Notes: generated by a model from the sequence alone, not told the origin. A DNA stretch of 64,000 nucleotides from an uncultured Gemmatimonadales bacterium (GCA_963850905.1 CAWKMU010000004.1:352001-416000), one strand, 5' to 3'. Shown: positions 5,124-26,774, numbered from the stretch's first letter. Translations and numbers: made by a program.

Positions 5124-5316
5124 GTCTTCGCTTGCTGGTGCGCGAAGCTGCCGGCTCAGACTCCAGGGGTCGGGGGTCGATCTGACGTCAACACAGATGC
5201 GATATCAGATGCGTGAGCGCAGGCGTGGACCTACGCGGTGGCGCGAGTGCTGCCTGCGAAAATACTTGGTGATTCGTTGTGAGCGGGGCAACTAATGTGA
5301 AGCTCCCGGAGGTTCC

Positions 5317-5988
5317 ATGGTACGAAGTGGTCGTGGCCGCACACGAAGGCCCAAGCCGCAGATCGCCGAACTGATGCTCACTCTCCAAGACACGGAGCCC
5401 CCGGTATGGCGCCGGATCGCTGTGCCATACGACATCCCGCTCGCCGTACTGCATCGAGTGTTGATCGTAGCGATGGGGTGGAAGGGCTACCACCTTCACG
5501 CCTTCGAGGTCGACGACGTGACGTACGGTGTACCGGACGATGAATTGCCGGACAGCACGATTTCCGAAGAAGGGGCGACTCTGCGCACCATAGCATCGGG
5601 CGAAGGGGCGATATTCACGTACCAGTACGATTTCGGCGACAATTGGCAGCACCTCGTGAGCCTGGAGCGGCTCGTCCCGTTCACGCGCGAGGCGTTAGTG
5701 CCGCACTGCTTGGATGGCGCGCGCGCCTGTCCTCCGGAAGATGTGGGCGGCGCCGGCGGATACGCCGAGATGCTGCAGGCCTTGGCAGGCGAACAGCGTT
5801 TCTTACCGCCGGACAGCGACGAGGAGGAGTCCGAGGACATGGGCGATCTCACTACGCCCGCCTCGTACCGACGGTGGCTGGGATTCGACTTCGACGCGGA
5901 TGAATTCCATCCCCATTGCATCAACATGGAGTTCAGTCGGCTGCTCGCGTTCGACGAGCAGTTTCAACTCCTGCTAGGGGATTTCTGA
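5317..5988 (+). CDS. Plasmid pRiA4b ORF-3 family protein
   Basis: PPVWRRIAVP, LHRVL..AMGWKGYHLHAF, YQYDFGDNWQH, GARACPPEDVGG. Confidence 0.9.
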   Translation: MVRSGRGRTRRPKPQIAELMLTLQDTEPPVWRRIAVPYDIPLAVLHRVLIVAMGWKGYHLHAFEVDDVTYGVPDDELPDSTISEEGATLRTIASGEGAIFTYQYDFGDNWQHLVSLERLVPFTREALVPHCLDGARACPPEDVGGAGGYAEMLQALAGEQRFLPPDSDEEESEDMGDLTTPASYRRWLGFDFDADEFHPHCINMEFSRLLAFDEQFQLLLGDF

Positions 5989-6084
5989 ACTAAATCGGCG
6001 TCCGCCTACACCCGACGCCCGTCGGGCACGCGCCGATCGCTGAACAGCGGCGGGCGGCCGTCGGCCGGTGACTGCTCGCCCCTT

Positions 6085-6528
6085 CTACTTCTTTTTGCGA
6101 GGCGGGCACGGGGTCTTGGGCGTCGGGACTTGCCCGTTCCAGCACGGCACCACGGCAGGTGTGACACCACCGGGGGCGGGTTGGAGCGTTTCGTTGATCG
6201 TGACCGACTGCAGCGGCAGCGGAGAGCTACCGCTTCCGTCTTTCGGGGCGGTGATCGGAGCGTGCTGACTCTTGCCTGACGCTTCGTTGTTCGCGTCCAC
6301 CGGGGTCTCAACACCCTGCTGAAACCCGCGCGTTTCCGTCCAGGATGCGGCGAGGCCGCCGTGGTAGGCGGTGCAGAGCGCGGCCGTGGCCGCGGCCACC
6401 CCGTCTGCGCAGGGCACCGGCTTCGTAGTGTCCTGGGCGTGCGCGATGGAGTTCGGCGTGAGGGTCGCGGCTGAGCCGATCGATAGTAGCGCGACGAGGC
6501 CGAGGCTTGAACGGGTGGGCACGCGCAT
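6085..6528 (-). CDS. Small secreted hypothetical protein with an Hcp-like motif
   Basis: Signal peptide ending AHA-Q, four Cys, internal FQQGVETPVDANNEASGKSQHAPITAPK..SSPL. Confidence 0.6.
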   Translation of the reverse strand: MRVPTRSSLGLVALLSIGSAATLTPNSIAHAQDTTKPVPCADGVAAATAALCTAYHGGLAASWTETRGFQQGVETPVDANNEASGKSQHAPITAPKDGSGSSPLPLQSVTINETLQPAPGGVTPAVVPCWNGQVPTPKTPCPPRKKK

Positions 6529-6646
6529 AACGGTTCCAGATCGAGGACGAGGGTGTCGTCCAACGAAGCTGGAGCGTGCGCCATGCGTCGTCCAATTCTT
6601 TGCTTCGAATGACGCGATCGGGCGCGCCTATCGAGCGCCGGCGATC

Positions 6647-8095
6647 CTATCTGGCGCCTGCTCCTCCAAGGGATGTCACTGGCTCCGAGTCGATCCGAGT
6701 CAACACCCGACGATAATACGCCGTCGTGCTCGCGTTTCGGCTGGCGCGCATGGCGCTCACGAGCTCTCGACGCATCGCTAGGCGCCTCCGATTGCGCGCA
6801 TCCAGTGCCTGTCGTCGCGCGAGCGCCGCCGCCTCGATCAGCCGCGCACGACGCTCCTGGTAGGCTGCCGCAGCAGCGATTGAGGTAGCTGGCGCGGGAG
6901 TCACCGTGATGTCGCTCTGGCCGCCGAAGCCCTGAATCGACGCGTCCACCTCCTGCGTGCCTGGATTCAGTGCCTGCACTTCCCCCATGGCCTCGACGAC
7001 GACCACACGACTGGAATCAGAGGAAACGACTGGGCCGGCATCCCATTCGACGAACATGTTCGGATATGCGTTCCCCGAGGAATCGATGCCGATCGCTTCC
7101 ATCTGCACGCTGTCGCCGACGGCCAGCGTGTCCACGGGTGGCACAACCTGAATGCGGGCGAAGGGATTACAGATCGGCGTGCTCGCGACGTAGCAGATCG
7201 TGAGAGTCGATTGAGCCTTGACCGCACCGGCCGTAGCGGTGATGACCGCGCGGCCGTTCGCATCGGGAGCGATCAGGATTGAGCCGCCCACGATGGTATC
7301 CGGACCTGCTCCCAGAAACCCGCTCACCGGAGGGTTCGTGCTGGTGAACACGACTGGAAAATTGTTCAGCACGCGACCGGTCGCCGTTTGGACGGTCGCA
7401 GTGACCTGGACGAGTACGTCCAGCGGGTTCGGGATCGCGACGACGGAATCGGGACTGATCTGTAGCGAGATGCTCGCGGGCGCGGTCGTGTCGATCACCA
7501 CCGTCGTGTTGCTCCCGGTCTTGCCACCCACCGAAGCGGTGATCGTCACGGTGCCAGCGCTCCCGCCCAGCACCTTGCCGGCGCTCGACACCGACGCGAT
7601 GCCGGTGTCCGAAGACGCCCAGGTGACCGGCATATTGAGCACACTCCCATTCATGCCCTTCACCGTGTCCGACAACTGCACCCCCAACCCGATGGCGACG
7701 GTATCGGCTGACGGTTCGACAATGACGGCGCTAACGGGGACGGGATTTATAGTGAGGGCGGCGAAGCCCGAGACTCCCTGCGCGCTCGCCGCGAGTCGAA
7801 CTTGGCCCGTATCGCGGGCCGTGGCGCGTCCATTCTGATCGATGCTGGCGATAGCCGTGTCACTGCTCGACCAGAGGAACGTGACGCCGGTGACGACTGC
7901 GCCTGCCTCGTCGTGGGCTATGGCGGAGAACGTCTGAGTGCCGTGGAGAGTTACCGCGGCTGAGTCGGGCGTGATGACGATGGCGTGAACCGGGCCGACG
8001 CCGGGGCCAACGGCCTGCTGCGAGGAGCTGCACGCCAGGTCGATCACCAGCAGCGCCACAGCGGCGCTACAGATCCACTGCGACCGGAGTTTCAC
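6647..8095 (-). CDS. Lipoprotein with several Ig-like (Big_2) domains
   Basis: Lipobox-like DLAC; repeated WSSSDTAIASIDQNGRATARDTG / WASSDTGIASVSSAGKV motifs; basic C-terminal tail. Confidence 0.85.
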   Translation of the reverse strand: MKLRSQWICSAAVALLVIDLACSSSQQAVGPGVGPVHAIVITPDSAAVTLHGTQTFSAIAHDEAGAVVTGVTFLWSSSDTAIASIDQNGRATARDTGQVRLAASAQGVSGFAALTINPVPVSAVIVEPSADTVAIGLGVQLSDTVKGMNGSVLNMPVTWASSDTGIASVSSAGKVLGGSAGTVTITASVGGKTGSNTTVVIDTTAPASISLQISPDSVVAIPNPLDVLVQVTATVQTATGRVLNNFPVVFTSTNPPVSGFLGAGPDTIVGGSILIAPDANGRAVITATAGAVKAQSTLTICYVASTPICNPFARIQVVPPVDTLAVGDSVQMEAIGIDSSGNAYPNMFVEWDAGPVVSSDSSRVVVVEAMGEVQALNPGTQEVDASIQGFGGQSDITVTPAPATSIAAAAAYQERRARLIEAAALARRQALDARNRRRLAMRRELVSAMRASRNASTTAYYRRVLTRIDSEPVTSLGGAGAR

Positions 8096-8705
8096 GTTTT
8101 GCCGAAAGGTGGCCGAGCAGCCGCCGGCCGAGGCCGAAGCGCGCTGCTCACAACTGCGCCCGCGGCAACGCGTACACCAGTTCGTTCACTCGTGAGCAGT
8201 ACGCCGCCTATCAGTCGCTGCTCGACACTTTCCTGGCGGAGCGAATCCAGCAGGAGCGAAACGGTCATCGAAGGCCCCCGAGGCATGTCCTAGGTACGTG
8301 GTCCGCCACTCGGCGCCGGCGCGGCGTACTCGACAGCTACTCGGAGCGACGGGGTCGCCTTGTCATTGCAACAAAACCGACCGCCAGGTGGGGAACAATT
8401 GTGCTTTCGGCTGAGGGCGGCGCGGTGACAGCGGGGCAATCAGCCCCGGCAGCATGCGGGCAAAAGGGTCCGGTTTGGCAGCACTACCGCTCACCGCCGA
8501 GGCTCGCTGCGAGCTGTGAAAACCGGCGGCGGCCAGTCTTGCAGCGGGCTCGACCGTATCACATATTGTGCGGGCTCATGCAGGAGCCAATGTGGCCGCG
8601 AGCCTTTGGATGCCCGTCGTCCGCGGCGGATCGCGCACTCGATCCGTGCGCAAGAGGAAATTCCTCCTTGCGCCCGCTCCCTTCTCCGACCGGAACGCGC
8701 TCCGG

Positions 8706-9924
8706 TCACGAATCGCGGCTGGGTATCGGCGATGGCCGCTCCCCGACCTCGAGCTGAGCAAGCAGGTCGAGGAGTCCAACCGCCTCCCACGACTGGTTGC
8801 GCCGGGAGGACGACAGAGGCGTCAGCACACCGGCGTCCGCGAGTTGGTTCAAGGCCTGATAGACCGATGGCTTCGATCGCCCCGTTGACGCAATAGCAAC
8901 GGAAGCAGTAATGACAGGGTGCCCTGGGAGGATGTCAACCACGGCCCATGCTGCGGCGTCCGTCCGCAGATTGCCCGCAGATCCCACAATCTGGCTTCTC
9001 CAATGCGCAGCAAGATCCTGGACCGCTCGGACGTAGTCTGAAGCCAAGTGCGCCGCAGTCGCCGCTGCGCTTGCAAAGTGTTCGATCCACTCGCTAACTC
9101 GCGCCCTCTCTGAAATCTGTCAGGCCCTTGATGTACCGGCTCTTCGCACCCGCAAGCACGATACTTATCGGTGGCATGTACGCGGATGCGATCTCACGTC
9201 GGCGAAGCACCACATGAATCAGGGCTCGTCCGGTGCGGCCGTTGCCGTCTTCAAAGGGATGGATCGTTTCGAACTGCGCGTGGACGAGTGCTGCCTGCAC
9301 TAACGGTGGAAGCAGATTGTCGTTGATCGCATCGCATAAGTCGGTCAACAGCGGCCCAACGTATTCGGGGGGCGGTGGGACAAAATTTGCCCCGCAAGGA
9401 TTGTAGTTGTTGCCCCCAATCCAATTCTGGCGACTTCGAATTTGGCCTGCGATCTGTCTGTGCGGCGCGGCTTCCATCAGCCGCCGATGAATAGAAGTGA
9501 CTTGCCCTAACCCGAATGGGACAGCAGTCACTGCCTCCTGAACGGCCAACTCCATGGCGGCGATGTTCGCTAACACTTCGGCCGCAGTCGGACTTACCCG
9601 GCCCCCGGCTTCCAAACGACCCTCCGCGCGCGCAAGCTCGCGCACCCCGACCTGCAATCCCTCGATCCTGGAGGAAGCAATAGACTCGGTACGTAGCAGC
9701 AAATGCCCCAACGGAGCGAGCGCCGGTCGTGCCTTGTGGTTGAGTGCTAGGATGGCCGCTTCAGCCTCGGACACAACGCCAGCGACTTGCACAGGTAGGC
9801 TGACAGCTAGCGCGGCTAAAGGATCGGGAACGAACGCCTCATAGGAGCAAGCACGCTTGTACTTTGCGGGTCCGTGGATGGTGGGCTCGGACGCCCACCT
9901 CAGCTTGATTCGACGTCCGGGCAT
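8706..9924 (-). CDS. Fic-family protein with C-terminal winged-HTH-like domain (apparent +1 frameshift near 9103)
   Basis: Canonical Fic motif HPFEDGNGRTGR; ESIASSRIEG; continuation frame 8706..9047 encodes HPVITA..STGRSKPSVYQALNQLADAGVL. Confidence 0.88.
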
Positions 9925-9994
9925 TTTGGCCCTCCAAGCAAGTTCTGCGACCACGCCAGCCAGACGCAAAGGGAAGCCTTATTAAGGAACTGAC

Positions 9995-10212
9995 TTAGTT
10001 AGACTTAATGGCGTAATCTAACTAAAGGCCATGACAGAGTTAGACTTAGTCCACATTCCTAACTAAGATAGCTGTAGAGTCCGGATTAGCGACCTTTACA
10101 GAGACGGCACGCCTAAAGATCACCCACGAGGGAGTCGGCCCCCCTTTACCTGACGGAGGTTTTTTAGTTAATGATCCGCCCTATCTCTAACTAAGGGTCA
10201 TTCTTAGTTAGG
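9995..10212. promoter_or_regulatory. Array of 9-13-9 inverted-repeat operator-like sites upstream of fic
   Basis: TTAGTTAGA-N13-TCTAACTAA 9995-10025; AGAGTTAGA-N13-CCTAACTAA 10036-10066; TTAGTTAAT-N13-TCTAACTAA 10164-10194; half site TTAGTTAGG 10204-10212. Confidence 0.75.
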
Positions 10213-10427
10213 GATCGACCAACACGCATCACGCTCGCCTCCTGATACAGCACGACCGTACAACCAAGTCGTGTTGCCGCGACCGGGATCCAAACCAAAA
10301 TCGGCCCAGCGCCCAAAGCCGCGATTTGCTGTGGCCGCAACGAACGGCCCGATTGCGCTTCTTCAGCTTCGCCTTACTACGGTAATCGTCGATGCCTGGG
10401 TCGATCCCAAGCCGAGGCGGAGACGCG

Positions 10428-10730
10428 CTACGCGGCTGCGGGCGAGACTTCCCGCGCTATACGCTTGGCGTTCCGGATCTCCGCGACGCGCAGGTCGTAC
10501 GCCGTCTGCAGGTTCATCCAGGAACGAGCGTCACCGCCGAAATAGCGCGCCAACCGCATGGCCGTGTCCACCGACACGCCCCGTCGCCCGCGCACAACGT
10601 CGTTGATACGCGGAGCCGGCACCCTCAACGCCTTGGCCAACGCGTTGGCGCTCATGCCGAGCGGCTTCAGGTAGTCCTCTCGAAGCACTTCGCCCGGATG
10701 GACCGGTCGCATTCCACTCGTGAACATCAT
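10428..10730 (-). CDS. higA: HigA antitoxin (Xre HTH)
   Basis: RPVHPGEVLREDYLKPLGMSANALAKAL..DTAMRLARYFG..WMNLQTAYDL. Confidence 0.95.
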   Translation of the reverse strand: MMFTSGMRPVHPGEVLREDYLKPLGMSANALAKALRVPAPRINDVVRGRRGVSVDTAMRLARYFGGDARSWMNLQTAYDLRVAEIRNAKRIAREVSPAAA

Positions 10731-10732
10731 CG

Positions 10733-11017
10733 CTACCCTCGGTGGTAATCCACCAATTCCACGTCCGTCGGACCTTCCCGCGTCCAGCGAAAACACAGTC
10801 GATATTGGTCGTTCACCCGAATGCTGAATTGCCCCCTCCGGTCCCCCTGCAAGGCCTCCAACCGGTTCCCGGGCGGAGACCGTAAGAACGCGAGCGTCTC
10901 GGCGGCTTCCAACTGTGCCAACTTGCGGGTCGCGACGCGAGCAATCGCTGAGAATCTCTTGGACTTGCCGGTTTCAAATAGGGCTTGCGTATCCGCGCAC
11001 CCGAAGCCCTTGATCAC
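10733..11017 (-). CDS. higB: HigB toxin (RelE/ParE superfamily)
   Basis: IKGF..TQALF..LRSPPGNRLEALQGDRRGQFSIRVNDQYRLCFRW..VELVDYH; toxin-first order. Confidence 0.95.
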   Translation of the reverse strand: MIKGFGCADTQALFETGKSKRFSAIARVATRKLAQLEAAETLAFLRSPPGNRLEALQGDRRGQFSIRVNDQYRLCFRWTREGPTDVELVDYHRG

Positions 11018-11052
11018 AATGTCATGGTATAACGTTTAACGTTCAACGTCAA
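11018..11052 (-). promoter_or_regulatory. Leaderless sigma70 promoter of higBA with AACGTT palindromic operator
   Basis: Minus strand TTGACG-N17-TACCAT-N6-GTG; the spacer holds three AACGT(T/C) units at 7-bp period. Confidence 0.7.
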
Positions 11053-11167
11053 GCAACTGACGGCGTCTCTATGGCCGCACCGAGATTCGCCGCCAGGCCC
11101 TCGCCCAGGCAATGAGTCACCACACCCGATGGGTTCGCTCGGGCGCGCCTCGACCGAGAAAGATGAA

Positions 11168-12260
11168 ATGACGCCGCGCTGTCGCTCGGAAGCCACCGTG
11201 CCTGCGAACGCTCCGACTCCCGACACGGCCGCCATGTCTCGCCCTCACACTCGGCCTTCGACATCTCACCGCGCTCCAGCGCCGCCGGCACCCGGCCGCG
11301 CGCTGTCCGGTCGCGATGCCGCAGTCATCGAGCGATATCTCCGAGTGCGCGCTACTCGCCTCTCTCCCGCATCGCTCCGGGAATACCGCAGCGATCTCAC
11401 GCAGTTCGCCCATGCCATTGGCCGCCGACGCTCGCTCCTCACCGCCTCCGCCGACGACGCCGCCACCTGGTTCGGCGCGCACACCCGCGACGACAACGAC
11501 CCGTCCGACCGGCGGCCCTGGTCCGTCCGCACAGCCCACCGCCGGCGCGACACCCTCCTAGGCTTCTATCGTTGGCTGCTCCGCGAACGCCTTGTCCGCA
11601 GCAACCCCGTCGAGTCCGTCGAGCTCCCCCGCTTCTACCGCCGAGCGCCGCAGCTCATCTCCCTGACAGACATAGAACGCATCTTCACCTACGCAGAAAC
11701 CCGGCTCGCGGCCGCCGACAAACCCGACACGGCACTCCTCACGCGCGATATCGCAGTCCTCCGGCTCATGGAGCGCCTCGCACTCCGTGTCTCCGAGGCC
11801 AACGGCATCCGACTCTCCCGGCTCTCCACCACCGACGGCGAGCTCCGTGCCTGGATTGCCAAGAAAGGGAAACAAGCCGGCTGCCTATCCGATCACCGGC
11901 ATCGTCGGCCAGGCCTTCGTGCGCTGGCTCAAAGTGCGCAGCGCCATGACGCCCGCCGTCGGACACGAGGATTTCGTCTTCCTCCACCCCACCTCGGGCC
12001 GACGGATCACTCGCAAACAGATCTCGGCCCGCCTCCGTGTCCTCGCCCGCGCCGCGGGCCTCGACGCAGTCGTCGTTCGGGCGCTCTCTCCTCACAAGCT
12101 TCGACACGCCCGGGCCCGCGCGATGCTCGCCTCCGGCTTCCACATCGCCGCCGTCCAGAGCGTCCTCGGTCACGCCTCGATCCGCACCACCCAGATCTAT
12201 GTCGAGGAGGCCGAGCTCACGCGCCTCGACACGCTCCGCGCTCTGAGCGCCCGGACCTAA
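11168..12260 (+). CDS. Tyrosine recombinase (XerC/D-like), copy 1; apparent +1 frameshift near 11865
   Basis: N-terminal SAM-like domain (IERYL..SLREYRSDL), ALRVSE (R), AKKGNK (K), PHKLRH (HxxR), LGH, TTQIY (Y) across two frames; start 11168 or 11234. Confidence 0.88.
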
Positions 12261-12296
12261 AGGGAAGACCGTCAGGAGTGCCGTGGAACCGGACCA

Positions 12297-12701
12297 CTAC
12301 ACGCCAGTGCTCCAATCCTCCAGCACCAGGCCGGGCACTCTCGTGAACTCCGCTTGGTTACAGGACACGAGCGTGTGCTGCTGGGCCATCGCGACACTCG
12401 CGATGATCAGGTCGCGTTCCCCGATCGGACGGGCCCGAAGCGCCCAGCGTAGCTCCGCGTGCCAGCGCGCCGCCTCGCTGTCGAACGGCAGTCGCTCGAT
12501 CGGCGCCGACAGGAAAGCCTCGATCCGGGCCAGGCCGGCCGGAGGATTGCTGCTGTTCCGCGCTCCGTAGCGGAGCTCGGCCTCGGTCATCGTCGTCACC
12601 GCTACCTCGTCAGGCGACCGAGCACGCACGCGAGACCAGACTGGCTCCCGCTCGCGCAACACACAGATGACCGTATCGGTATCCAGGATGTACCTGTCCA
12701 C
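12297..12701 (-). CDS. vapC: VapC PIN-domain toxin
   Basis: YILDTDTVI, MTEAELRYG, IGERDLIIASVA, LVSCNQAEFTRVPGLVLEDW. Confidence 0.93.
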   Translation of the reverse strand: MDRYILDTDTVICVLREREPVWSRVRARSPDEVAVTTMTEAELRYGARNSSNPPAGLARIEAFLSAPIERLPFDSEAARWHAELRWALRARPIGERDLIIASVAMAQQHTLVSCNQAEFTRVPGLVLEDWSTGV

Positions 12702-12702
12702 G

Positions 12703-13053
12703 TCAGCCTTTCGGGCGGCGCCGACGGGTCGCGGCGCGGCTACCGCGCTTTCGCCGCGTGCCCGCCCCCGCCGGATCGGGGCCCTCGCTTTCGAGTGCCG
12801 CGAGCCGCGCCTCGCGGTCGATCGACGGCGGCAGCGGCGGCGGGACGACCATGTCGTCCGGCATCGGCGCGAGATTCGTCAGACGCTCCCAATACCCGAC
12901 CGGCCATGCACGCCCCTCCAGCGGCTCGAGCAACACCCCCCGGCCAAGCCGACGAACACTCACCACCGTGCCCGGCAACCGAAATTCCTTCGGCAGCCGA
13001 ACTGCCTGGCTCCCCCCGTTCGTGAAGAGCGTCGCCGTCTTCCCGTCGGCCAT
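12703..13053 (-). CDS. vapB: VapB antitoxin (AbrB/SpoVT-type)
   Basis: ATLFTNGGSQAVRLPKEFR..VRRLGRGVLLEP; directly upstream of vapC. Confidence 0.92.
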   Translation of the reverse strand: MADGKTATLFTNGGSQAVRLPKEFRLPGTVVSVRRLGRGVLLEPLEGRAWPVGYWERLTNLAPMPDDMVVPPPLPPSIDREARLAALESEGPDPAGAGTRRKRGSRAATRRRRPKG

Positions 13054-13069
13054 GTGCCCCTCCGATCTA

Positions 13070-13088
13070 TGTATATATAGTATATACA
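13070..13088. promoter_or_regulatory. Palindromic operator of vapBC
   Basis: TGTATATA-TAG-TATATACA perfect 8-3-8 inverted repeat just upstream of vapB. Confidence 0.7.
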
Positions 13089-13123
13089 CTCGCGCCGCCG
13101 AAAGCAACGTTCCGCACGCGACC

Positions 13124-13561
13124 CTAGGCGCGTCGCGGACGCCGGGTTCGAGGCGCTGGGCCAAACGGATTGAGGACCGCGACCCCCGACGGGGCGAAGT
13201 GAGCCTCGTTGCGGGTCACGACAGTCAAGCCTCGCTCGATCGCGCTCGCCGCCAGTAGCATGTCGACGGGGAACTGCGGATGGTCGTCGACGAGTCGGCC
13301 CCAGCGCAGGGCGATTGCCGCGTCGATCGGCAGTACGCGCTCTCCGTAATCAGCCGTCAGGCGTTCGAGCCACGCCGCCAGTGCCTGCGCATGGGGCTGT
13401 CCCGTGCGTCCGCTTTTCGCTACGCCCTTCGCGATCTCGCCCAGCGTGATGACGCTCAGATACGTGGAGTCCGGAGGCACATTGCCGATCCAAGCCAGTA
13501 CGCGCTGGTCTGGGCGCGGGCGCCGGAGTTCCGACACGATATTGGTGTCGAGAAGGTACAC
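13124..13561 (-). CDS. vapC: VapC PIN-domain toxin (second)
   Basis: YLLDTNIVSELRR, LSVITLGEIAKG, VDMLLAASA..LTVVTRNEAHF..LNPF. Confidence 0.93.
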   Translation of the reverse strand: MYLLDTNIVSELRRPRPDQRVLAWIGNVPPDSTYLSVITLGEIAKGVAKSGRTGQPHAQALAAWLERLTADYGERVLPIDAAIALRWGRLVDDHPQFPVDMLLAASAIERGLTVVTRNEAHFAPSGVAVLNPFGPAPRTRRPRRA

Positions 13562-13575
13562 GGTGCGCGTCCAGA

Positions 13576-13845
13576 CTAGAGATCAATGTCGCGGAGCTGG
13601 AGCGGAATACGCTCTATGTCACTCTCTCCGGAGTCGACTCGCGGGATCGCCTGCAGAAAACTCTCGAACGGGACTCGCGGCGCATGGATCAGCCCAGCAA
13701 CCCGTGCGTAGTCCTCATACGAAAGAACGACGGCCGTCTCGACGCCCCGCCGCGTCACCACTTGCGGTCCCCGTTTCGCCGCGTCGACGACTTCACTCAG
13801 CTTGTTTTTGGCGTCCTGGAGAGACCACCGCTTGGTCGCGCCCAC
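13576..13845 (-). CDS. Phd/YefM-family antitoxin
   Basis: WSLQDAKNKLSEVVDAA..GPQVVTRRGVETAVVLSYEDY. Confidence 0.93.
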   Translation of the reverse strand: MGATKRWSLQDAKNKLSEVVDAAKRGPQVVTRRGVETAVVLSYEDYARVAGLIHAPRVPFESFLQAIPRVDSGESDIERIPLQLRDIDL

Positions 13846-13863
13846 TGGCTTCGCTCCTGTAGT

Positions 13864-13884
13864 AGCTAGCTGTCCAAGCTAGCT
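13864..13884. promoter_or_regulatory. Operator of the phd-vapC pair
   Basis: AGCTAGCT-GTCCA-AGCTAGCT: two 8-bp palindromes upstream of phd. Confidence 0.65.
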
Positions 13885-13960
13885 TGCAGGGCTCCATTCT
13901 GCAAGCCTTCGACCCGTCGTGCTGGTAACGCCCCAGGAGCAAGCCGCTGCCGCTCCCAAA

Positions 13961-15049
13961 ATGACGCTCCGCTGTCGCCGCGCCCTCACCGTGGTTCGTC
14001 GCCGACGTCGCCCCCGCGCGCACAACCCTGCCCCACCCTCAGCCTCCCCTACCTCGCCGTTCACGACGCCGCGCCCGAGCACCCGCCCGGCCACCGTCGG
14101 CGCGCGATACCGCGCTCATCGAACGCTACCTCCGCGTTCGCGGCACCCGCCTCGCTCGCACGACCGCCCACGAATACCGCGGCGACCTCAAGACACTTCG
14201 CGGACGTCTATGCGCCGGCGCTCACTGCTCTCCACGACACCCGACGACATCGCCGCCTGGTTTCACGCCCACACCCGCGACGACAGCGACCCGACCGACC
14301 CGCGCCGCTGGTCCGTCCGCACCGCACACCGACGCCGCGATACCCTCATGGGATTCTTTCGCTGGGCACTCCGCGAACGACTCGTCCGCCGCAATCCCGT
14401 CGAGTCGGTCGAGCTCCCCCGCTTCTACCGCCGACCACCACGGCTCGTCTCACTCGCCGAGATCGAACGCATCTTCACCTACGCCGAGGCCCGCCTCGCT
14501 GCCGTCGATACGCCAGACATGGCGCTCCTCACGCTCGATGTCGCCGTCCTCCGCCTCATGGAACGACTCGCCCTGCGCGTCTCCGAGGCCGCCGGGATCC
14601 GAATCTCCCGACTCTCCACCACCGACGGCGAGCTCCGCGCCTGGATCGCAAAAAAGGGAAACAAGCCGGCCGCGTACCCGATCACCGGCATCGTCGGTGA
14701 GGCGTTCGTGCGCTGGCTCAAAGCGCGCGCCACGCTGACGCCCGCGACGGGACACGAGGACTTCATCTTCCTCCATCCCGCCCTGGGCCGACGGATCACG
14801 CGCTACCAGATCTGGGCGCGACTCCGCGTCCTCGCCCGCGCGGCCGGCCTCGGCGAGCTCGTGGTCCAGTCGCTCTCACCCCACAAGCTCCGACACGCCC
14901 GGGCCCGCGCAATGCTCGCCGCTGGCTTTCACATCGCCGCCGTCCAAAGCGTCCTCGATCACGCGTCGATTCGCACGACCCAGGTCTACGTCGAGGACGC
15001 TGAGCTCACTCGGCTCGACACCCTGCGCGCCCTCAGCGCGCCCACATAA
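13961..15049 (+). CDS. Tyrosine recombinase (XerC/D-like), copy 2; N-terminal part out of frame around 14105-14210
   Basis: Close paralog of copy 1 (WSVRTAHRRRDTL, NPVESVELPRFYRR, ALRVSE, AKKGNKPAAYPITG, PHKLRH, LDH, TTQVY); the homologous RDTALIERYLRVR segment is in another frame. Confidence 0.88.
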   Translation: MTLRCRRALTVVRRRRRPRAHNPAPPSASPTSPFTTPRPSTRPATVGARYRAHRTLPPRSRHPPRSHDRPRIPRRPQDTSRTSMRRRSLLSTTPDDIAAWFHAHTRDDSDPTDPRRWSVRTAHRRRDTLMGFFRWALRERLVRRNPVESVELPRFYRRPPRLVSLAEIERIFTYAEARLAAVDTPDMALLTLDVAVLRLMERLALRVSEAAGIRISRLSTTDGELRAWIAKKGNKPAAYPITGIVGEAFVRWLKARATLTPATGHEDFIFLHPALGRRITRYQIWARLRVLARAAGLGELVVQSLSPHKLRHARARAMLAAGFHIAAVQSVLDHASIRTTQVYVEDAELTRLDTLRALSAPT

Positions 15050-15162
15050 GCCCCGATCCCCTCGCCACGTGGCCCGCTTGAGATCCCACGTCGCCCGACG
15101 CTGACGTGGGCGAGACCCGATCCGAAGAGCGATGCAGACGTCACACCCTAATGCGCGCAAAG

Positions 15163-15197
15163 TTGCCAAACCCAAGCGGCTTGGGTATATTCCTCCG
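15163..15197 (+). promoter_or_regulatory. Leaderless promoter with palindromic operator
   Basis: TTGCCA-N17-TATATT-N6-GTG; ACCCAAGC-G-GCTTGGGT palindrome at 15170-15186. Confidence 0.72.
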
Positions 15198-15452
15198 GTG
15201 ACCGGCCTCCGCATTGGAGAGGTGCAATTTCGGGTCTACCCGCAGGACCACCCGCCGCGTCACGTCCACGGGTTGATCGGTTCCGGCTACGTCATCGTCG
15301 ACCTGAAACTCGATGGAATGGTCGCGTTGGCTGACCGATCGGACGCAGTTCGAAAGGCCACGCGATCTGAAGTTCGGAAGGTACTCGAGGCCGCGGCCGC
15401 CGGGTTCGATCGGCTGGTCGCAGCGTGGGAGAGGATGCATGATGGCGAATGA
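15198..15452 (+). CDS. DUF4160-family protein (predicted TA component)
   Basis: FRVYPQDHPPRHVH and C-terminal LVAAWERMH. Confidence 0.82.
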   Translation: MTGLRIGEVQFRVYPQDHPPRHVHGLIGSGYVIVDLKLDGMVALADRSDAVRKATRSEVRKVLEAAAAGFDRLVAAWERMHDGE

Positions 15453-16005
15453 AGGTCACCCGATCACGACAACGGATGCAGAGATCACCGCGGCAATTGC
15501 GCGCGGCGAGCACACCCCGGCACCGTACGCTCAGAAGGTCTGGTACGACGCGAAAAGGGATGCCATCGTCGCGCGTATCGTGAGCCCCGGAGTCGTTGGA
15601 CCTCTGGACGTACCGTTCACACGACAGCGGATGCAGGGACTCCAAAGGGCGACGCCCGACGAGCTGTCGCATATGGAGCTCGAAGGTGATGGGACCGGCA
15701 TAGTGTGGCCGGCGTTGGATGTCGCGCACTACATCCCCGGTCTGCTCGCCGGTGTCTTCGGAACCGCTCGCTGGATGGCCGCGCTCAATGGGCGCCGCGG
15801 GGGCCAGAATAGGTCCTTGGCAAAAGCCATGGCGGCTCGAGCAAACGGCGCGAAGGGTGGTCGCCCGCCGGCCCGACAACGGACGACCGCCGCACGTCGC
15901 GTTGGGACTCGCAGCTACAAAAAGCCCATCAAGAAATCCCCTGTGGGCAAGCGTCGCCAGCGGACGAGAACCGAGCAGCCGCGGAAGCCAGAGGCTTCCT
16001 CATAG
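15439..16005 (+). CDS. DUF2442-family protein (predicted TA partner)
   Basis: QGLQRATPDELSHMELEGDGTGIVWPALDVAHYIPGLLAGVFGT..AKAMAARANGAKGGRP; overlaps the DUF4160 stop. Confidence 0.85.
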   Translation: MMANEGHPITTTDAEITAAIARGEHTPAPYAQKVWYDAKRDAIVARIVSPGVVGPLDVPFTRQRMQGLQRATPDELSHMELEGDGTGIVWPALDVAHYIPGLLAGVFGTARWMAALNGRRGGQNRSLAKAMAARANGAKGGRPPARQRTTAARRVGTRSYKKPIKKSPVGKRRQRTRTEQPRKPEASS

Positions 16006-16169
16006 CGCTGTGGTCGATTTGCGCAATCTCGACACGCTGAAGAGAGCGACTGGAAAGCCGCTCTCGGCCTCTCAAAGCCACTAGGCATTCTCGTCGATCC
16101 ACGATGCGAGTCGATGGGTCGCAAGCGCGAGCGGATTGGCCTCGGTACGAGATGAGGTGACCCGCTTGG

Positions 16170-18876
16170 TTACAGGGTCTCCAACCCCGGGACCGCCCTC
16201 ACCTCGAACGTCGCGCTGCTCTTCTCTTTGCCGTACGTCACGGTCGCGATGTAGGTCCCGGGATGGACGTACTTCGCACCCTCGCCGCCTTCGTACGACG
16301 CCAGGACGTCCTTGCTGCGCTTGAGGTCCCACACGACCCGATTGAGACCGGCGATCGAGAGACCGACTAGATGCGCGATAGGGCGGCCCTCTTTGGTGGT
16401 GATCGCGATCTTCACACTGTCGCCCGTTGCCTGACTCAAGTAGTAGGTCAGGATCGCGCCGTTCGGCGGGTTCTCCCCTCTGAACTGTCCGCTCCCCGTC
16501 CATTCGTCGTAACTGGGCAGCGGCTCGGATTCGACCGCCGTGTCGGGGACGAAGAGATGGACGGGCTCTTTCATCACTTGTCGCGTGAGCTGGGTGATGG
16601 GTCGGATCCGATCCACGATGTACAGACCCCGTCCCTGGGTCGCGATCACCAGGGAGTGTGTGGTCGGCTCGACCACGATGTCGGCGACCGCCACGGTCGG
16701 CAAATCCCCGAACGCAGACCACGACTTCCCCCGATCGAGCGACAGCCACAAACCATGTTCCGTCCCCGCGTACAGCACGTCGGCGTTGTCAGGATCCTCC
16801 CGCACGAGTCGCACGGGCTCGTCGGCCGGCACGTTCGCGGCAATGCTCTGCCAGGTCGCACCCCCGTCCGCAGTCCGATACGCCAGCGGGGCATAATTGC
16901 CATCGTGCTGTCCATCCCACGCGACGTAGGCCACGTTTGCGTCGGTATGGCTCGCCTCAACGCGGCTCACGAGATGGCCGCGCGCAGGCTGGGGAATCGT
17001 CGCCGTGAGGTCGGACCAGTGCCCGCCGTCATCCACGGTGCGCCACAGCTTCCCGTCGTCGGTTCCAGCCCACAACTCCCCCGCCTTCACAGGCGATTCG
17101 GCAATCGTGTACACGACACCGTAGCTCTCCGCACCGCTGCCGACGGCCTGCATTCTCGCGAGATCTTTGGTCGACAGGTCCGGCGAAATCACCTGCCAGT
17201 GCTCCGCTCGATCGGTCAACTTGAAGATGACGTTGCCGCCGAGATACATCGTGCCCGGCACGTGCGCGCTCATGATGAGCGGCGCAAGCCAGTGGTAGCG
17301 GAACGCCGGCTCTCCCTCGTTGGGCTCCGGTCTCAAATTCCTGAGCTGGCCGCTCCGGAGATCGAGGCGCACCAGGTCCGCACGCTGTGACTCGAAGTAG
17401 ACAATCGCGGAGTCCCTGGGATCGAACGCGCAGTACGAGCCGTCACCGCCGCTCAGCGTCTGCCAATCCCCATCGCGGATCTCTTCCTTGCTCCGCGTGG
17501 CGCTCGGCCCCACCCAGTTCGTGTTGTCCTGCAACCCGCCGCAAATCCGAAACGGCGTCGATCGGTCGACGTTGATCCGATAGAACTCCCCGACCGCGAA
17601 CTTCGCCAGATGGTCCCACGCAACGCCGCGATTGAAGGACTGGTACAGGCCTCCGTCATTGCCGATCAGCACGTGTTCGTGATCGACAGGATCGATGGCG
17701 AGCGCGTGGTTGTCGGGATGGAGGTGCTTGCCGAGGTCCTCACGCCACGTCGTCCCGCCATCGTCGGAGACGAGCAGCACGAAGCTCAGGAGATAGACAC
17801 GCGAGCGAGTCGGCCGGATCGACCCGGACCTGACTGAAATAAAAGGGTCGCGGATCGAGCTTCGATACACGCGTCCAGTGCTCGCCACCGTCGCCCGTGC
17901 GAAAGACCCCGCCTTCCTTGCTCAGCGACTCGTCGAGGCCGACCGTCCCACCCGAGTCGCTCTGCACGACAGCGAACAGGATGCGAGGCTGGCTCGCGTC
18001 GAGCGACAGCCCGATCCGGCCGGTTTGCGTCGGCAACCCGTTCGTGAGCTTGTGCCACGTGACGCCGCCGTCAGTGGTCTTGAAGATGCCTCCCAGATCC
18101 TTGCCGTCCGTCGCCGGCGCCCCGTACGTGAATGACCACGGTCGGCGCCGGCGCGCATAGAGCGTCGCGTACACGACGTTCGGGTTCGAGGGGTCGATCA
18201 CGACGTCACCGGCACCGACCCGATCATCGTAGGGCGCGGGAGCGGCCAGCACTTTCTTCCACGTCGCGCCGGCGTCGGTCGTCTTGTACAGCCCACGCTC
18301 AGCACTCGACATCCAGAGATCGCCGATGACCGCGACGTACGCCGTCTTGGGGTCAGTCGGGTGCACCGCAATCCGGGCAATCGCCTTGCTGTCTTTGAGT
18401 CCGACGTTGACCCAGGTGGTGCCCGTGTCTGTCGAGCGATAGACGCCATCGCCCCACGTCCCCGAGTTCCGATCGTTGGCCTCACCGGTGCCGACCCAGA
18501 TCACCGTCGGGTCGGATGCCGCCACAGCAACGTCGCCAATGCTGGCGACGTTCTCGTGCGCAAAGATCGGCTTGAATGTGATGCCGTTGTCGGAGGTCTT
18601 CATGATGCCGCCCATCCCAAACCCCACATAAAACCGACTGGGTCGTTTAGGGTCGAACGCAATGCTGGAGACACGTCCTCCCATGACCGCGGGACCAATG
18701 CTCCGCGCTTCTATACCATGAGGCAGGACCAGCGTCGTCGTGTCACTGCGCCGAGCGCGCGACCCCTGGGACTGGTCGGGCCGGCCGCGACTGGTGTCGC
18801 GCTGACCACCGGCCGCGGCAACGGCGATGGCCGACACGAGCATCGCCGCGCACGAGAGAGGAAATCGTCTGAGCAT
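16170..18876 (-). CDS. Secreted BNR/Asp-box (VPS10-like) beta-propeller protein; apparent frameshift near 17805
   Basis: RSIGPAVMGGRVS, repeated S/T-x-D-G-G-x-T-W boxes, GGLQDN, GGDG, ISPDLS, VIATQGRG. Confidence 0.88.
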
Positions 18877-19094
18877 TGGGGGCTTGTCGAGAGGGCCGCT
18901 GAGCCGTGCTAGCTCACGAGGGCGAAAAGAATAGCTCGTCCGCCGAAGCCTCGGCAAGCAAAGGAGCGACACCTTGCTCGCACTCTGGTCCCTGACCCCA
19001 CCGTTCCTTACGTCAGGCTTTGCACCATGGCCCACACCATGCAGCGACAGGCATGGCTCGGTCGAAAAAGAGACCATCCACACGGAGGCGAACG

Positions 19095-19472
19095 ATGCTT
19101 GCAGACAGGAAGGCCCTGGCAACGGTCCCGGTCAAGAGCCTGGCGAAGGCGCGACCCTTCTACGAGCGGACACTTGGCCTCCAGCCGATCGGGACGAGCG
19201 AGCCAGGCGTGCAGAATTATCGAGCCGGTGACTCCACGATCGTCGTCTACGAATCCGCATTCGCCGGGACCAATCAGGCGACCGCCGTCACCTGGCCGTT
19301 GGGCGACGATCTGGAGCCGGTCGTGCGTGACCTCAAGGCCAAAGGCGTCGCCTTCGAACACTATGACCTGCCGGGCATCACGCTCCAAGGCGACGTCCAC
19401 GTCGCGGGCCGCACACGAGTCGCGTGGTTCAAGGATCCGGACGGGAACATCATCAATATCGGGAACTACTGA
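19095..19472 (+). CDS. VOC/glyoxalase-family protein
   Basis: ARPFYERTLGL, AGTNQATA, AWFKDPDGNII; RBS GGAGG upstream. Confidence 0.9.
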   Translation: MLADRKALATVPVKSLAKARPFYERTLGLQPIGTSEPGVQNYRAGDSTIVVYESAFAGTNQATAVTWPLGDDLEPVVRDLKAKGVAFEHYDLPGITLQGDVHVAGRTRVAWFKDPDGNIINIGNY

Positions 19473-19529
19473 CCACACACTTCGCCACCCTCGACAGTCG
19501 GTCGGCGGGCGCGGGCGAGGTGTGACCTC

Positions 19530-20018
19530 TCAGACCGGTCTCCGACTGCCGCGCTGCAGCGCCAGCAGGGCCTCCAGCTCGATCAAATGCTCCAGGTCTC
19601 TCCCTCGGCCAGCCGCCCGCTTCGTGGCGATCAACGCCGGCAAAGTCAGAACGCGGAACTCGGTCTCCCCGACGGTAACGAGTTCCGAGTGCGCGAGGGC
19701 CTCGACGTAGGTTCCAAGTCCGGGCACTCGATCAATGAGATCGATGTCGCCGACATCCGTCGTCAGCGTCATCACGGGCGCGCTGCGCAGCGCCCGGATA
19801 TCGAGCACGAACGGGAGGCCGAGCTCCACCCCCCGCAGATACGCGTGCCAGTCCGTCAGGACACCGACGAGTCGCTCCATGCTGTCGGCAGCGGTATCGT
19901 AGCAGAGGTCGATGTCGTTCGTGAAGCGCGCCGACCCGTGAACCGTGGCCGCTACTCCGCCGATGACCACGAAGCGCACACCGGCTGCGATCAGTGCCGC
20001 CACGATCTGCTCGAACAC
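19530..20018 (-). CDS. Nucleotidyltransferase (AbiEii/MenT-like, predicted toxin)
   Basis: VVIGGVAATVHGSARFTNDIDL (GG..DxD) and LIATKRAAGRGRD. Confidence 0.8.
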   Translation of the reverse strand: MFEQIVAALIAAGVRFVVIGGVAATVHGSARFTNDIDLCYDTAADSMERLVGVLTDWHAYLRGVELGLPFVLDIRALRSAPVMTLTTDVGDIDLIDRVPGLGTYVEALAHSELVTVGETEFRVLTLPALIATKRAAGRGRDLEHLIELEALLALQRGSRRPV

Positions 20019-20026
20019 GGGCGGCG

Positions 20027-20560
20027 CTATCCGGTTCTGCGGCGGCGGCCGGCCAACGTCGGAGTCGCGGCCGCGCGCCGCACCCGACGGCGGAACTCGA
20101 CCATCGCGTCCAGCTGGCGGAGCCGCTCTGCCGGCGTACGTCGCAGGTTCGCGCCCAACAGCGTCAAGTCGAGCCCGTAGTCCCCCGCCCGACCGAGCGG
20201 ATCGTGCCGCTTCTCGGCTCGGCGGCCGCGGCGGCGAGGTGCGTACATCACCCGCAACCGGGCCAGTCCGGCGGCGACGGTGGCCAGCACGCGATACACG
20301 TCCACCGACGCGGTGACCAGGCCGTCACCATCGCCAACGGACACCGGCTGCGCGGAGCCGTCGTAGCGGCGCAGAACGTCGGCGGCCAACACATACGCAC
20401 CGGGAAACGGCACTCCAAGGCCTTGGATCAATGCCCGCGCGACAGCAACCCGCTCCGCCGCGCGGATCGTATACGGAATACGCCGGCCAAGGGCAGCCGC
20501 GGCGTTCTGCAGCCACTTCGGGTCGACGTCCAGCAGGTAGGCGAACTCCCCGAGCGTCAT
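20027..20560 (-). CDS. Putative HTH antitoxin/regulator paired with the nucleotidyltransferase
   Basis: N-terminal HTH-like TLGEFAYLLDVDPKWLQN; C-terminal GLDLTLLGANLRRTPAERLRQL; own promoter. Confidence 0.65.
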   Translation of the reverse strand: MTLGEFAYLLDVDPKWLQNAAAALGRRIPYTIRAAERVAVARALIQGLGVPFPGAYVLAADVLRRYDGSAQPVSVGDGDGLVTASVDVYRVLATVAAGLARLRVMYAPRRRGRRAEKRHDPLGRAGDYGLDLTLLGANLRRTPAERLRQLDAMVEFRRRVRRAAATPTLAGRRRRTG

Positions 20561-20595
20561 GGGATAATTATACCTGGGACACAGACGTATTTCAA
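20561..20595 (-). promoter_or_regulatory. Leaderless sigma70 promoter
   Basis: Minus strand TTGAAA-N17-TATAAT-N6-ATG(20560). Confidence 0.78.
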
Positions 20596-20711
20596 TCAGA
20601 CGCCCGTGCTGCCGGCCAATGGCGCGGCTCCTGATGGTCTCACCCAGCCGCGACAAACTGACGCCCGGGCCCTGAACCGGGCGGCGCGAAGGCCGCCCGA
20701 GGGGCGTCTCC

Positions 20712-21281
20712 CTACACTCTGGCGGTCGGCGCCGCGACACCCCCGCCGCCAGCGGCCATCGCGGCCCTCCGGGCCATCTGGGCGCGTGTGAGATGCGGCA
20801 CCAGCCCCACCATCCGCTCGATGAGCATCAGCTGCCCCCGGTGATGCATCTCGTGTTCCTTGACCGACAGGATCATCTCGAACCGACTCTTGGAGCCACC
20901 ATTGTCGCCACCAAAGCTGACCCGCTCAGCGAGCACGCTCTCCGTCACGCCGTCCAGCCAGGTCGCCCACTTCTCCCCGGAGCTGCGCAGCATGGCCAGC
21001 GTCTGCTCCTTGCTCCGCGCGGCCTTTTCCTCGACAGCCAAGCGCTGCATGAGACCGACAAAGTCGAACCCCTCCATTGACGATCGGTGTTCCACCGCAT
21101 GCACCTGGTGGTGGAAGCTGTACGCCAGCGCGATGTGCGCGAGTAACTCGCCGACCGTCCGCGTCTCAGGCGCAGGTCGAAAGGCGTATCGGTCTTCCGG
21201 CAGCTCCTCGGCGATCGTAATGGTGTTCCCGCGGACGACGCGGAAGCTCTCAGCCAGCTCTTTGGCCCCGTAGTAATTCAC
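20712..21281 (-). CDS. DinB-family protein
   Basis: FRPAPETRTVGELLAHIA; HEMHHRGQL. Confidence 0.9.
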   Translation of the reverse strand: MNYYGAKELAESFRVVRGNTITIAEELPEDRYAFRPAPETRTVGELLAHIALAYSFHHQVHAVEHRSSMEGFDFVGLMQRLAVEEKAARSKEQTLAMLRSSGEKWATWLDGVTESVLAERVSFGGDNGGSKSRFEMILSVKEHEMHHRGQLMLIERMVGLVPHLTRAQMARRAAMAAGGGGVAAPTARV

Positions 21282-21418
21282 GCAAGTCTCTCTGGTTGTG
21301 GGTCGGCGAACGGATACCCCGCTCTAGACAACTTAGCAACCGCGGCAGGAATCAGGCGCTCGGCACGCGGCCCCTGCCAGTCCCGTCGTTCAGTGTCCAG
21401 CGTCCAGTCGTCCAGCGT

Positions 21419-21967
21419 CTAGCGTCTAGCGTCTAGCCAACGTCTTTTCACTTCTGTCACAAACTGCGCGCCCCCTATCGTCAGATAGAGTTGCCGCTCC
21501 ATCACTGACAGGCTGAACGCCACTCGGCGCGCGAGATGGGGTGCGAGCCCCGCCAGGAACTCGCGGTCGATCGCGTACAGCTCGATCGACTCGGCGCGGT
21601 GGATCCGTGATCCCTCGAGCTGCCGCACGAGCTGCGCCGGCTCCTTGTGCGTGTACACCACGACGCGGGGGGCCGCACGTGTCGCGCGATGCAGCCGCTC
21701 CGCGTTCGGCGCTCCGATCTCGATCCACACCTTTACCGCACCCGTCAGGTCGCGGACCGTCAGCGCGGGGTCGTCAGGCTCCGCCAGTCCACGGGAGAAC
21801 TCGATCCCCTCCGCATGCTCGAGACAGTACGCGAGCACGCGCGTGAGCAGATACTCCTCGGTCTCCGATGGGTGCCGTGCCGCCCGAATGGCCAACGTCG
21901 TGTACACGCCACGGTCGACGTCGGCCAGCTCGACGTCGAAGGTGTACATGGTGGCAGTAAGGGCCAT
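21419..21967 (-). CDS. yaeQ: YaeQ-family protein
   Basis: MALTATMY..DVDRGVY..ARHPSET..RVLAYCL..DDPAL..DLTG..WIEIG. Confidence 0.93.
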   Translation of the reverse strand: MALTATMYTFDVELADVDRGVYTTLAIRAARHPSETEEYLLTRVLAYCLEHAEGIEFSRGLAEPDDPALTVRDLTGAVKVWIEIGAPNAERLHRATRAAPRVVVYTHKEPAQLVRQLEGSRIHRAESIELYAIDREFLAGLAPHLARRVAFSLSVMERQLYLTIGGAQFVTEVKRRWLDARR

Positions 21968-22062
21968 GTGATCGGGTTCTGGGTGCGGAATGCGGCTACA
22001 ACAATACTACGGTGATGATGCCGACGCTCCGGGGCCGCGCTGCCCGCTCCTGGCGATGCTCA

Positions 22063-23876: not shown

Positions 23877-23918
23877 CCGCCAACGTCCAACGTCTAACAT
23901 CCAACCACCTAGCCCTCC

Positions 23919-26757: not shown

Positions 26758-26774
26758 CATTACGGAGCACCAGA

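Follow-up and report, generated by a model that had tools for sequence, protein, structure and literature searches.

Two XerC/D-like recombinase genes interleaved with toxin-antitoxin operons at a variable locus of a soil Gemmatimonadales genome

Gene content of the islet

The window analysed here is a 64-kb stretch (G000:C4:352001-416000) of the genome assembly G000 of an uncultured soil Gemmatimonadales bacterium, which comprises 4.49 Mb in 6 contigs with a completeness estimate of 82%. Within it, a 5.6-kb islet carries two genes for XerC/D-like tyrosine recombinases interleaved with toxin-antitoxin (TA) operons, and a fic gene lies on its left. An earlier note on this DNA had described the order fic(-), higBA(-), recombinase 1(+), vapBC(-), phd-vapC(-), recombinase 2(+) and DUF4160/DUF2442(+), and both the order and the gene families were confirmed by open reading frame (ORF) listing and family scans (Table 1). 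The two recombinase genes lie in direct orientation, and each has a different two-gene module divergently upstream, as the note had stated. HigB/HigA, PIN with MazE/AbrB, and PIN with Phd are adjacent partners of the type II TA kind, all above the Pfam cut-offs. DUF4160/DUF2442 is only a probable TA pair, as the score of DUF4160 is below its cut-off. The four type II TA-type operons each have their own control region and are predicted to be self-regulated. The earlier note had assigned an operator palindrome to every TA operon; this held for vapBC, phd-vapC and DUF4160, while higBA has AACGTT repeats beside a promoter-like site instead.

Table 1. Features of the islet and of the adjoining fic region (window coordinates)
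Feature	Position	Strand	Evidence and remarks
SoFic-like Fic/DOC gene	8706-9969	-	Pfam Fic 1.8e-20 and Fic_N; in the assembly two pieces, 9094-9969 and 8706-9047
AT-rich spacer without ORF, 460 bp	9970-10430		Between fic and higA (upstream of fic)
Terminator-like hairpin for higBA	10302-10321		
higA antitoxin (Xre-type HTH)	10428-10730	-	NCBIfam HigA 1.6e-31, 108 bits, above cut-off; Pfam HTH_3; start chosen among candidates
higB toxin (RelE-like)	10733-11017	-	Pfam HigB-like_toxin 1.2e-16, 61 bits
higBA promoter-like site	11024-11052	-	AACGTT repeats at 11031-11050
Recombinase 1, XerC/D-like tyrosine recombinase	11168-12260	+	Pfam SAM-like N domain and Phage_integrase, in two frame pieces
vapC (PIN) toxin of vapBC	12297-12701	-	Pfam PIN 7.6e-10; NCBIfam VapC matches below equivalog cut-offs
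vapB antitoxin (AbrB/MazE type)	12703-13053	-	Pfam MazE_antitoxin 2.6e-07; NCBIfam VapB matches
vapBC operator palindrome, 19 nt	13070-13088		Directly upstream of vapB
Second vapC (PIN) toxin, phd partner	13124-13561	-	Pfam PIN 2.3e-15
phd/YefM-type antitoxin	13576-13845	-	Pfam PhdYeFM 9.8e-14; NCBIfam phd_fam above cut-off
phd-vapC palindrome, 12 bp, perfect	13875-13886		Upstream of phd
Recombinase 2 with conserved 5' leader	13958-15049	+	Pfam Phage_integrase 2.1e-25; gene ~14028-15049, likely start CTG at ~14028
Sigma-70-like promoter of DUF4160, TTGCCA-17-TATATT	15163-15191	+	Palindrome CCCAAGCGGCTTGGG (15171-15185) in the spacer; kept in G004
DUF4160-like gene, putative TA component	15198-15452	+	Pfam DUF4160 E 0.0017, 19 bits, under the 23-bit cut-off; start chosen among candidates
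DUF2442 gene, putative TA partner	15439-16005	+	Pfam DUF2442 26.8 bits, above cut-off; 14-nt overlap with DUF4160

The TA genes of this genome were concentrated at the islet. Both PIN matches in G000 (2/2) and its only Phd, HigB and DUF2442 matches (1/1 each) fell inside the 5.6 kb, counts that come from an incomplete assembly and from a first-look filter that may miss divergent genes. By simple inference, the probability that four independent modules lie together by chance in 5.6 kb of a 4.49-Mb genome is ~1e-9, and the clustering is non-random. Nine other genomes of the genus were available for comparison; two of them, G001 and G004, have the recombinase, and G002 and G003 were used for the flanks. 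In G001, both PIN matches lay <=6 kb from the recombinase, and the sole HigB match belonged to a higBA pair in the interval between the recombinase and a Big_2 gene on its left. In G004, 1/7 PIN and 2/3 DUF2442 matches were near the locus and the others elsewhere in the genome.

The flanks were scanned with Pfam over 1-9100 and 19000-31000 (ORFs of at least 60 aa and with GC3 of at least 0.68), and no transposase, phage or conjugation domains were detected in these ORFs, in agreement with the earlier note. A search of 8-18 kb against Rfam at E<=1 returned two matches only, which is the chance level. On the right of the islet there are further TA-like genes, namely an AbiEii/DUF2204-like nucleotidyltransferase (19530-20018) and a CopG-type antitoxin (24869-25189); because of these two genes, the TA-rich zone spans ~16 kb. 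On the left, a PRiA4_ORF3-family protein (5317-5988; Pfam 3.4e-52; the family is named after a plasmid ORF) lies directly left of the Big_2 gene.

The region from fic to higBA has a GC content of 0.58-0.59, compared to ~0.65 in the surroundings. The fic gene matched the PADLOC model of the single-gene defence system SoFic (PDLC03963) with an E of 3.5e-54, yet the longer assembly piece covers only model positions 5-245 of 361, and the defence function is a prediction. The spacer between fic and higA contains five CTAACTAAG/CTTAGTTAG half-sites arranged as inverted pairs (9993-10214), against 1.47 expected, and 2 of 100 shuffles reached five. The best pair has 13-nt arms and a 7-nt spacer (10184-10214), and the CTTAGTTAG set was the only family of related inverted repeats detected. 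This spacer stretch was found once in the genome, and the motif was not found at the recombinase loci of G004 or G001. A role of these sites as core sites of the recombinases is unsupported, since they occur only upstream of fic and not near the G004 and G001 recombinases; they may serve the fic promoter as operators.

Integrity, class and descent of the recombinases

Neither recombinase gene is a single open frame as assembled. Alignment with recombinase 2 and homologues placed one extra base in recombinase 1, at 11867, while recombinase 2 has two, at 14191 and 14204, which detach the N-terminal domain. Logan contigs from four public soil runs of two studies (X1, X3 and X4 among the runs) were aligned to 9000-17000; these are assembled contigs rather than reads, they drop rare forms, and parts without cover (e.g., 11403-11669) are uninformative. 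The contigs showed indels at six places, four of which were 9102, 11867, 14191 and 14204; the remaining two, 10210 and 10384, lie in the fic-higA spacer and come from the X1 strain variant. Base 9102 was omitted in an X1 contig, which would rejoin both fic pieces; 11867 was omitted in one X1 contig (depth 2), and 14191 and 14204 were omitted in one contig each of X3 and X4, with one difference otherwise. The omitting contigs come from three of the four runs and from both studies, a thin support in which one contig belongs to a variant strain. Since the short-read contigs omit exactly the offending single bases, the frame breaks of fic and of both recombinases are most likely long-read assembly errors, and both recombinase genes are probably intact in nature. 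The sortilin/BNR-like neighbour is also split in the window (16170-17888 and 17740-19122) and is a single 933-aa ORF in G004. The split sortilin-like and fic genes, together with the low completeness estimate, point to widespread single-base indel errors in the long-read assembly.

Such errors, and a completeness of only 82% for 6 contigs, could also be taken to mean that the second recombinase or the whole interleaving arose from mis-assembled strain variants, a doubt that the earlier note had raised. The two copies, however, differ by ~16-20% in DNA and have different flanks. An X1 contig covering 11915-12127 showed 7 differences in 213 nt and resembles recombinase 1 far more than recombinase 2. 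The same vapBC module was also recovered independently in G001, close to the recombinase of that genome. An artefact of this kind is hardly credible in view of the recombinase-1-specific contig, and we regard the duplication as real.

Once read through, both copies retain the R, K, HxxR, H and Y that the earlier note had reported, although as assembled neither does so in one frame. The residues R185, K211, H287, R290, H313 and Y322 (G004 numbering) were invariant in all eight full-length members (8/8), and in the family alignments the catalytic residues vary little or not at all; the role of each residue was assigned by the XerD pattern. The intact G004 orthologue (341 aa) contains the PF00589 catalytic domain (8.9e-27) and the PF02899 SAM-like core-binding domain (4.8e-05), and its closest solved structure is E. 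coli XerD (1a0p, E 6.3e-18); both domains were also detected in the pieces of the two window recombinases. The domains and catalytic residues present place these predicted proteins in the tyrosine recombinase superfamily, with an XerC/D-like fold. The G004 orthologue was below the NCBIfam equivalog cut-offs of XerD (125 bits vs. 329.6) and XerC (123.5 vs. 335.15), and the integron-integrase models scored far below theirs (TIGR02249, 34 bits vs. 265; NF011946, 28 vs. 435), with only the last ~50 residues matching. Weak NCBIfam matches to tyrosine-type DNA invertases (E 1e-7 to 1.7e-6, ~30 bits vs. cut-offs of ~221) would suit recombinases that invert, delete or phase-vary the TA block, or that resolve element dimers. 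But the recombinase genes are in direct and not in inverted orientation, no inverted-repeat pair brackets the block and the contigs contain no alternative joints, which leaves such a switch very improbable.

The alignable part of the two genes extends from AAATGACGC (11167 and 13960) as far as the stop codon of each, with 80-84% DNA identity in two 300-nt repeat blocks and 84% mean column identity in the alignment. A conserved leader of ~70 nt begins at AAATGACGC (11167-11240 and 13958-14030) and is also present at the loci of G004 (L013) and G001 (L014). The ATG in this leader was rejected as the start codon, being in frame in recombinase 1 only; in recombinase 2 and in the G004 and G001 genes, the frame is closed by the overlapping TGA of the leader motif, which leaves only CTG or TTG as possible starts. 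The leader may be regulatory or may contain an unusual start.

From a collection of 5.8 billion proteins, 80 were returned, 19 of them with an identity of >=41%, and the named relatives of the window recombinase come from Gemmatimonadales metagenome-assembled genomes. At E<=1e-35, 2/401 genomes matched in the phylum sample, and at E<=1e-30 at least 4/401 matched in the family sample, a floor set by a stricter first look. The contig scan of genomes returned only G004, G001 and one 30% match. Among metagenome contigs, matches were obtained at a 51% locus and at a 36% locus, whose contexts were read, and at 78 others with a best-segment identity of 26-38%. Elsewhere in G000 there are three weaker, generic tyrosine-recombinase matches, and the close family is represented in this genome by the two islet copies only. 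By these searches, the recombinase clade appears to be rare and restricted to the Gemmatimonadales lineage.

A tree was built from 17 rows, with X joining the frame pieces in the rows of recombinase 1 and the G001 copy. In it, recombinase 2 grouped with G004, G001 and P0001 (support 92/88), while recombinase 1 branched outside this group within a 6-row clade (100/98). This position indicates two acquisitions or an old duplication rather than a recent copy, and recombinase 1 is an older paralogue or a xenologue of separate descent. The "close paralogs" of the earlier note are therefore paralogous, at 80-84% in DNA, but only loosely so, with recombinase 1 outside the clade of recombinase-2 orthologues. 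The copies found at the corresponding chromosomal position in G004 (91%) and G001 are orthologues of recombinase 2.

Module mosaic and search for recombination sites

The locus was then compared with those of the sister genomes. G004 has one intact copy of the recombinase, and its right flank is that of the window, with DUF4160/DUF2442 followed by the sortilin-like gene at 90-94% identity (90% for the common DUF4160). On the left of the G004 recombinase lies an operon of a DUF6036-like nucleotidyltransferase and a 322-aa protein (orf322), followed by peptidases, hydrolases and a TonB receptor. In G001, the single recombinase copy is frame-broken and has orf321 (88% identical to orf322 of G004) on its left; the nucleotidyltransferase gene is reduced there by deletion to ~50 nt, and next comes a vapBC that is 91% identical to that of the window. 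The module beside the recombinase thus differs, being phd-vapC in the window and orf321 in G001 despite the common vapBC, and the module borders between genomes are sharp. On the right of the G001 recombinase, a REP-like repeat is followed by the yaeQ-methyltransferase gene, which lies at 21.4 kb in the window. The Big_2 gene is 5.5 kb to the left of recombinase 2 in the window, and 29 and 26.6 kb to the left of the recombinase in G004 and G001, respectively. In G002, which lacks the recombinase, ogt and an aminotransferase gene adjoin the 3' side of the sortilin-like gene. An empty site was not found in the relatives: synteny is lost at genus level, two contigs of G002 hold one flank each, and the contig of G003 stops just past the sortilin-like gene. 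This comparison indicates a variable spot with a module mosaic, in which recombinase 2 is a stable landmark; with an integrase gene whose presence and accompanying content vary among close relatives, the locus shares a feature of integrated genomic islands.

Two further observations were made in the sister genomes. The nucleotidyltransferase/~320-aa operon in G004 (L013 10799-12372) and G001 (L014 8129-9094) lies behind a palindrome with 12-nt arms that contains TATAAT, and its two products are a possible, uncharacterised TA or defence pair as judged from the sequence. In the ESM Atlas, orf322 of G004 matched only unnamed clusters, and the unnamed family spans several phyla. The REP-like repeat directly 3' of the G001 recombinase stop (L014 10363-10460) consists of ~80-95 nt of GAACGTC-type units and occurs in dozens of copies across G001, G004 and G000, as does a second short repeat at L014 ~6186-6257.

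The junctions between modules were searched for sites at which the recombinases could act. A scan for inverted repeats with 11-nt arms and 5-9-nt spacers gave 14 against 6.95 expected, none of them shared between junctions. All-against-all short BLAST of 14 junction stretches from three genomes returned only orthologous stretches and module-specific palindromes. Modules of the dif/pdif kind have 28-bp sites of XerC-spacer-XerD build at their ends. A dif-core pattern, modelled on the E. coli type and perhaps not that of this phylum, had 4 matches in the window against 3.09 expected and none within 8.7-16.2 kb. No inverted repeat of the attC type was shared at the junctions, and the modules carry their own promoter or operator; some abut with gaps of 0-36 nt, which leaves no room for an attC-like element. 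Just one exact direct repeat stood out (15 nt, 12350 and 16162), and it was rejected as an att pair: one copy is internal to the vapC coding sequence and the other spans the stop codon of the sortilin-like gene. The 15-mer is nearly present elsewhere (14/15 in the G001 vapC, 12/15 in G004) and was judged to be a chance repeat, because both copies are coding and it nearly occurs in relatives that lack the other partner. In one X4 contig, 16839 is followed by 35 unrelated letters and then by 14771; this contig was taken as a chimera or as another organism.

At the left border of the recombinase genes, the sequence upstream of the 13955-13960 point is unrelated in the four copies and conserved downstream. 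This border would be expected if a cryptic site in the leader were the place where promoter-bearing two-gene TA or defence modules enter and replace one another, in the manner of a new integron-like platform. The layout resembles intI with its array, as the modules lie upstream of the recombinase and are transcribed away from it, and one vapBC module is common to two different arrays. Such a platform would explain why all G000 matches to four TA families are at the locus and why the sister modules differ. The sharp border, however, need not be a crossover point, since the leader starts there and the preceding ~60 nt are dissimilar between G004 and G001 even though these two have the upstream module in common. 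The integron-integrase scores given above, the lack of a repeated border site in the inverted-repeat scan, the junction comparison and the dif-core search, the 0-36-nt gaps and the absence of joints in the contigs all speak against the platform, and the family is tiny and its more distant members are without such arrays. We therefore consider it improbable. For the earlier note, these results sustain its statement that neither an integron integrase nor attC sites are present, and they lend no support to its candidate new TA-cassette system or non-integron array, for which repeated border sites, joints and an IntI signature were lacking and no TA domain was found near three of the more distant homologues (36-51%).

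Interpretation and relation to known systems

We interpret the locus as a variable hotspot at which small integrase-bearing islets were accreted in tandem with TA modules as addictive cargo, and we consider the chances that this is right or wrong to be evenly balanced. The interpretation starts from the observed gene content, the recombinases intact in the short-read data, the mosaic of modules between genomes and the concentration of TA genes. A resident unit would comprise vapBC, phd-vapC, recombinase 2 and DUF4160/DUF2442, beside the sortilin-like gene as in the sister species, and a second unit, made up of recombinase 1 and higBA and possibly also of the lower-GC fic region, would have arrived alongside it. 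The recombinases would be present or former integrases of such minimal elements, and the TA operons would be cargo that resists loss and hence accumulates. The recombinases would also have moved the modules, for which no site, junction or circle was seen. Of the two possibilities in the earlier note, the stacking of recombinase-plus-TA units in tandem fits the two diverged recombinases in direct orientation, the self-regulated modules, the differing modules of the sister genomes and the separate descent of the recombinases.

Several findings weigh against tandem accretion. Integrated islands have direct-repeat att sites at their ends, often at a tRNA gene or the 3' end of a gene. In the search for direct and inverted repeats over 8-18 kb, no att-like seam was found at a module border or island edge, and the 64-kb window contains no tRNA gene and no tmRNA target. 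The excised circles and empty sites that the earlier note had proposed to look for did not appear as joints in the contigs of the four runs, which drop rare forms. Because recombinase 2 is at the same place in three genomes, it has not recently moved, and the Big_2-recombinase interval of G004 and G001 (26-29 kb) holds mostly ordinary metabolic and transport genes rather than mobile-element genes. The contexts of only five close recombinase copies were read. Among the more distant homologues, no TA domains were found near L018, L019 or the Gemmatirosa homologue, L018 being represented by its downstream side only. L018 (51%) is followed on its contig by two unknown ORFs and then SusD/TonB/FecR; L019 (36%) has LacI and sugar transport genes as neighbours; and the homologue on the Gemmatirosa megaplasmid (37.5%) has TPR, AraC, transporter and peptidase genes.

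A different picture was obtained from G489, an unpublished genome of the same family. It encodes two copies (44-47% identity), each of them truncated by a contig end or interrupted by a TGA. The 44% copy adjoins an AbrB/MazE and Fic/Doc pair and a TraG/VirD4-type coupling protein, while the second copy is beside IS21 and IS3 fragments. A TA pair with a type IV coupling protein corresponds, in our analysis, to a classical integrative-element layout, a point that rests on this unpublished genome. The survey of homologue neighbours proposed by the earlier note thus gave a divided answer, with three homologues at 36-51% without a TA domain and one at 44% beside a TA pair.

The main rival reading is a passive hotspot, in which a resident and perhaps domesticated or idle recombinase sits in a plasticity region and TA and defence operons accumulate without its action. 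The modules would arrive by transformation or transduction, followed by homologous recombination in conserved flanks (including the 84%-alike recombinase genes) or by illegitimate recombination, and they would persist by addiction. The module borders coincide with gene ends or promoters and leave no residual site, and the border at AAATGACGC may merely be the start of the conserved leader. The synteny of recombinase 2 in three genomes, the TA-like genes far from the recombinases (19530-20018 and 24869-25189) and the ordinary neighbours of the distant homologues also agree with a passive hotspot. It does not readily explain why two recombinases of different descent lie side by side, each beside a different module, why they were kept intact with all catalytic residues, or why the G489 homologue with the coupling protein is in an element-like context. 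We therefore regard a passive hotspot as possible but rather doubtful.

Tandem accretion has parallels among known elements. Tandem islands with tyrosine integrases are known from tandem SGI1 integration (PMC2297512) and from tycheposons (bioRxiv 10.1101/2020.12.28.424599). The islet is like them in having several integrase genes in direct orientation with small cargo between, a patchy presence and different cargo at the same spot, and it is unlike them in having no tRNA or gene-3'-end target, no repeated att seam, no observed excision and units of only 1.5-4 kb. TA modules stabilise integrative elements, as in the case of mosAT of SXT (PMC2654960). Similarly, the TA operons of the islet adjoin a putative element integrase, and in G489 a TA pair and a type IV coupling protein are neighbours of the homologue; unlike SXT, the islet has cargo that is almost only TA and defence genes, with no transfer genes among the ORFs scanned in the flanks.

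The systems in which small TA modules are shuffled were compared in the same way. Sedentary chromosomal integrons with TA cassettes (PMC13108822) resemble the islet in combining a tyrosine recombinase with small modules, in many cases TA operons, that are lined up in divergent orientation to it. The islet differs from them in the absence of an IntI signature and of attC sites, in modules that have their own promoters or operators, and in a second recombinase inside the row. The dif (pdif) modules of Acinetobacter plasmids (PMC13141974, PMC6449649) are likewise small and shuffled; in many cases they are TA pairs, and Xer-type tyrosine recombination mobilises them. They depend on the Xer proteins of the host and have XerC/XerD binding sites on either side, whereas the islet is chromosomal and has its recombinases in cis, and no dif-like site was found in it. 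All parts of the islet are of known kinds, and nothing found here requires a new mechanism.

Should the locus be no more than an accreted islet, it would neatly illustrate, in a soil phylum that has received little study, how integrase genes at one chromosomal hotspot come to be surrounded by addictive TA operons and a defence gene. The locus also shows that an intact recombinase gene may be mistaken for a dead one because of indel errors in a long-read assembly. If the recombinases were truly to capture modules without classical sites, they would represent a second, independent solution to the problem that integrons solve. Such a capture platform would offer a way to study the gathering of TA genes by genomes that otherwise have hardly any.

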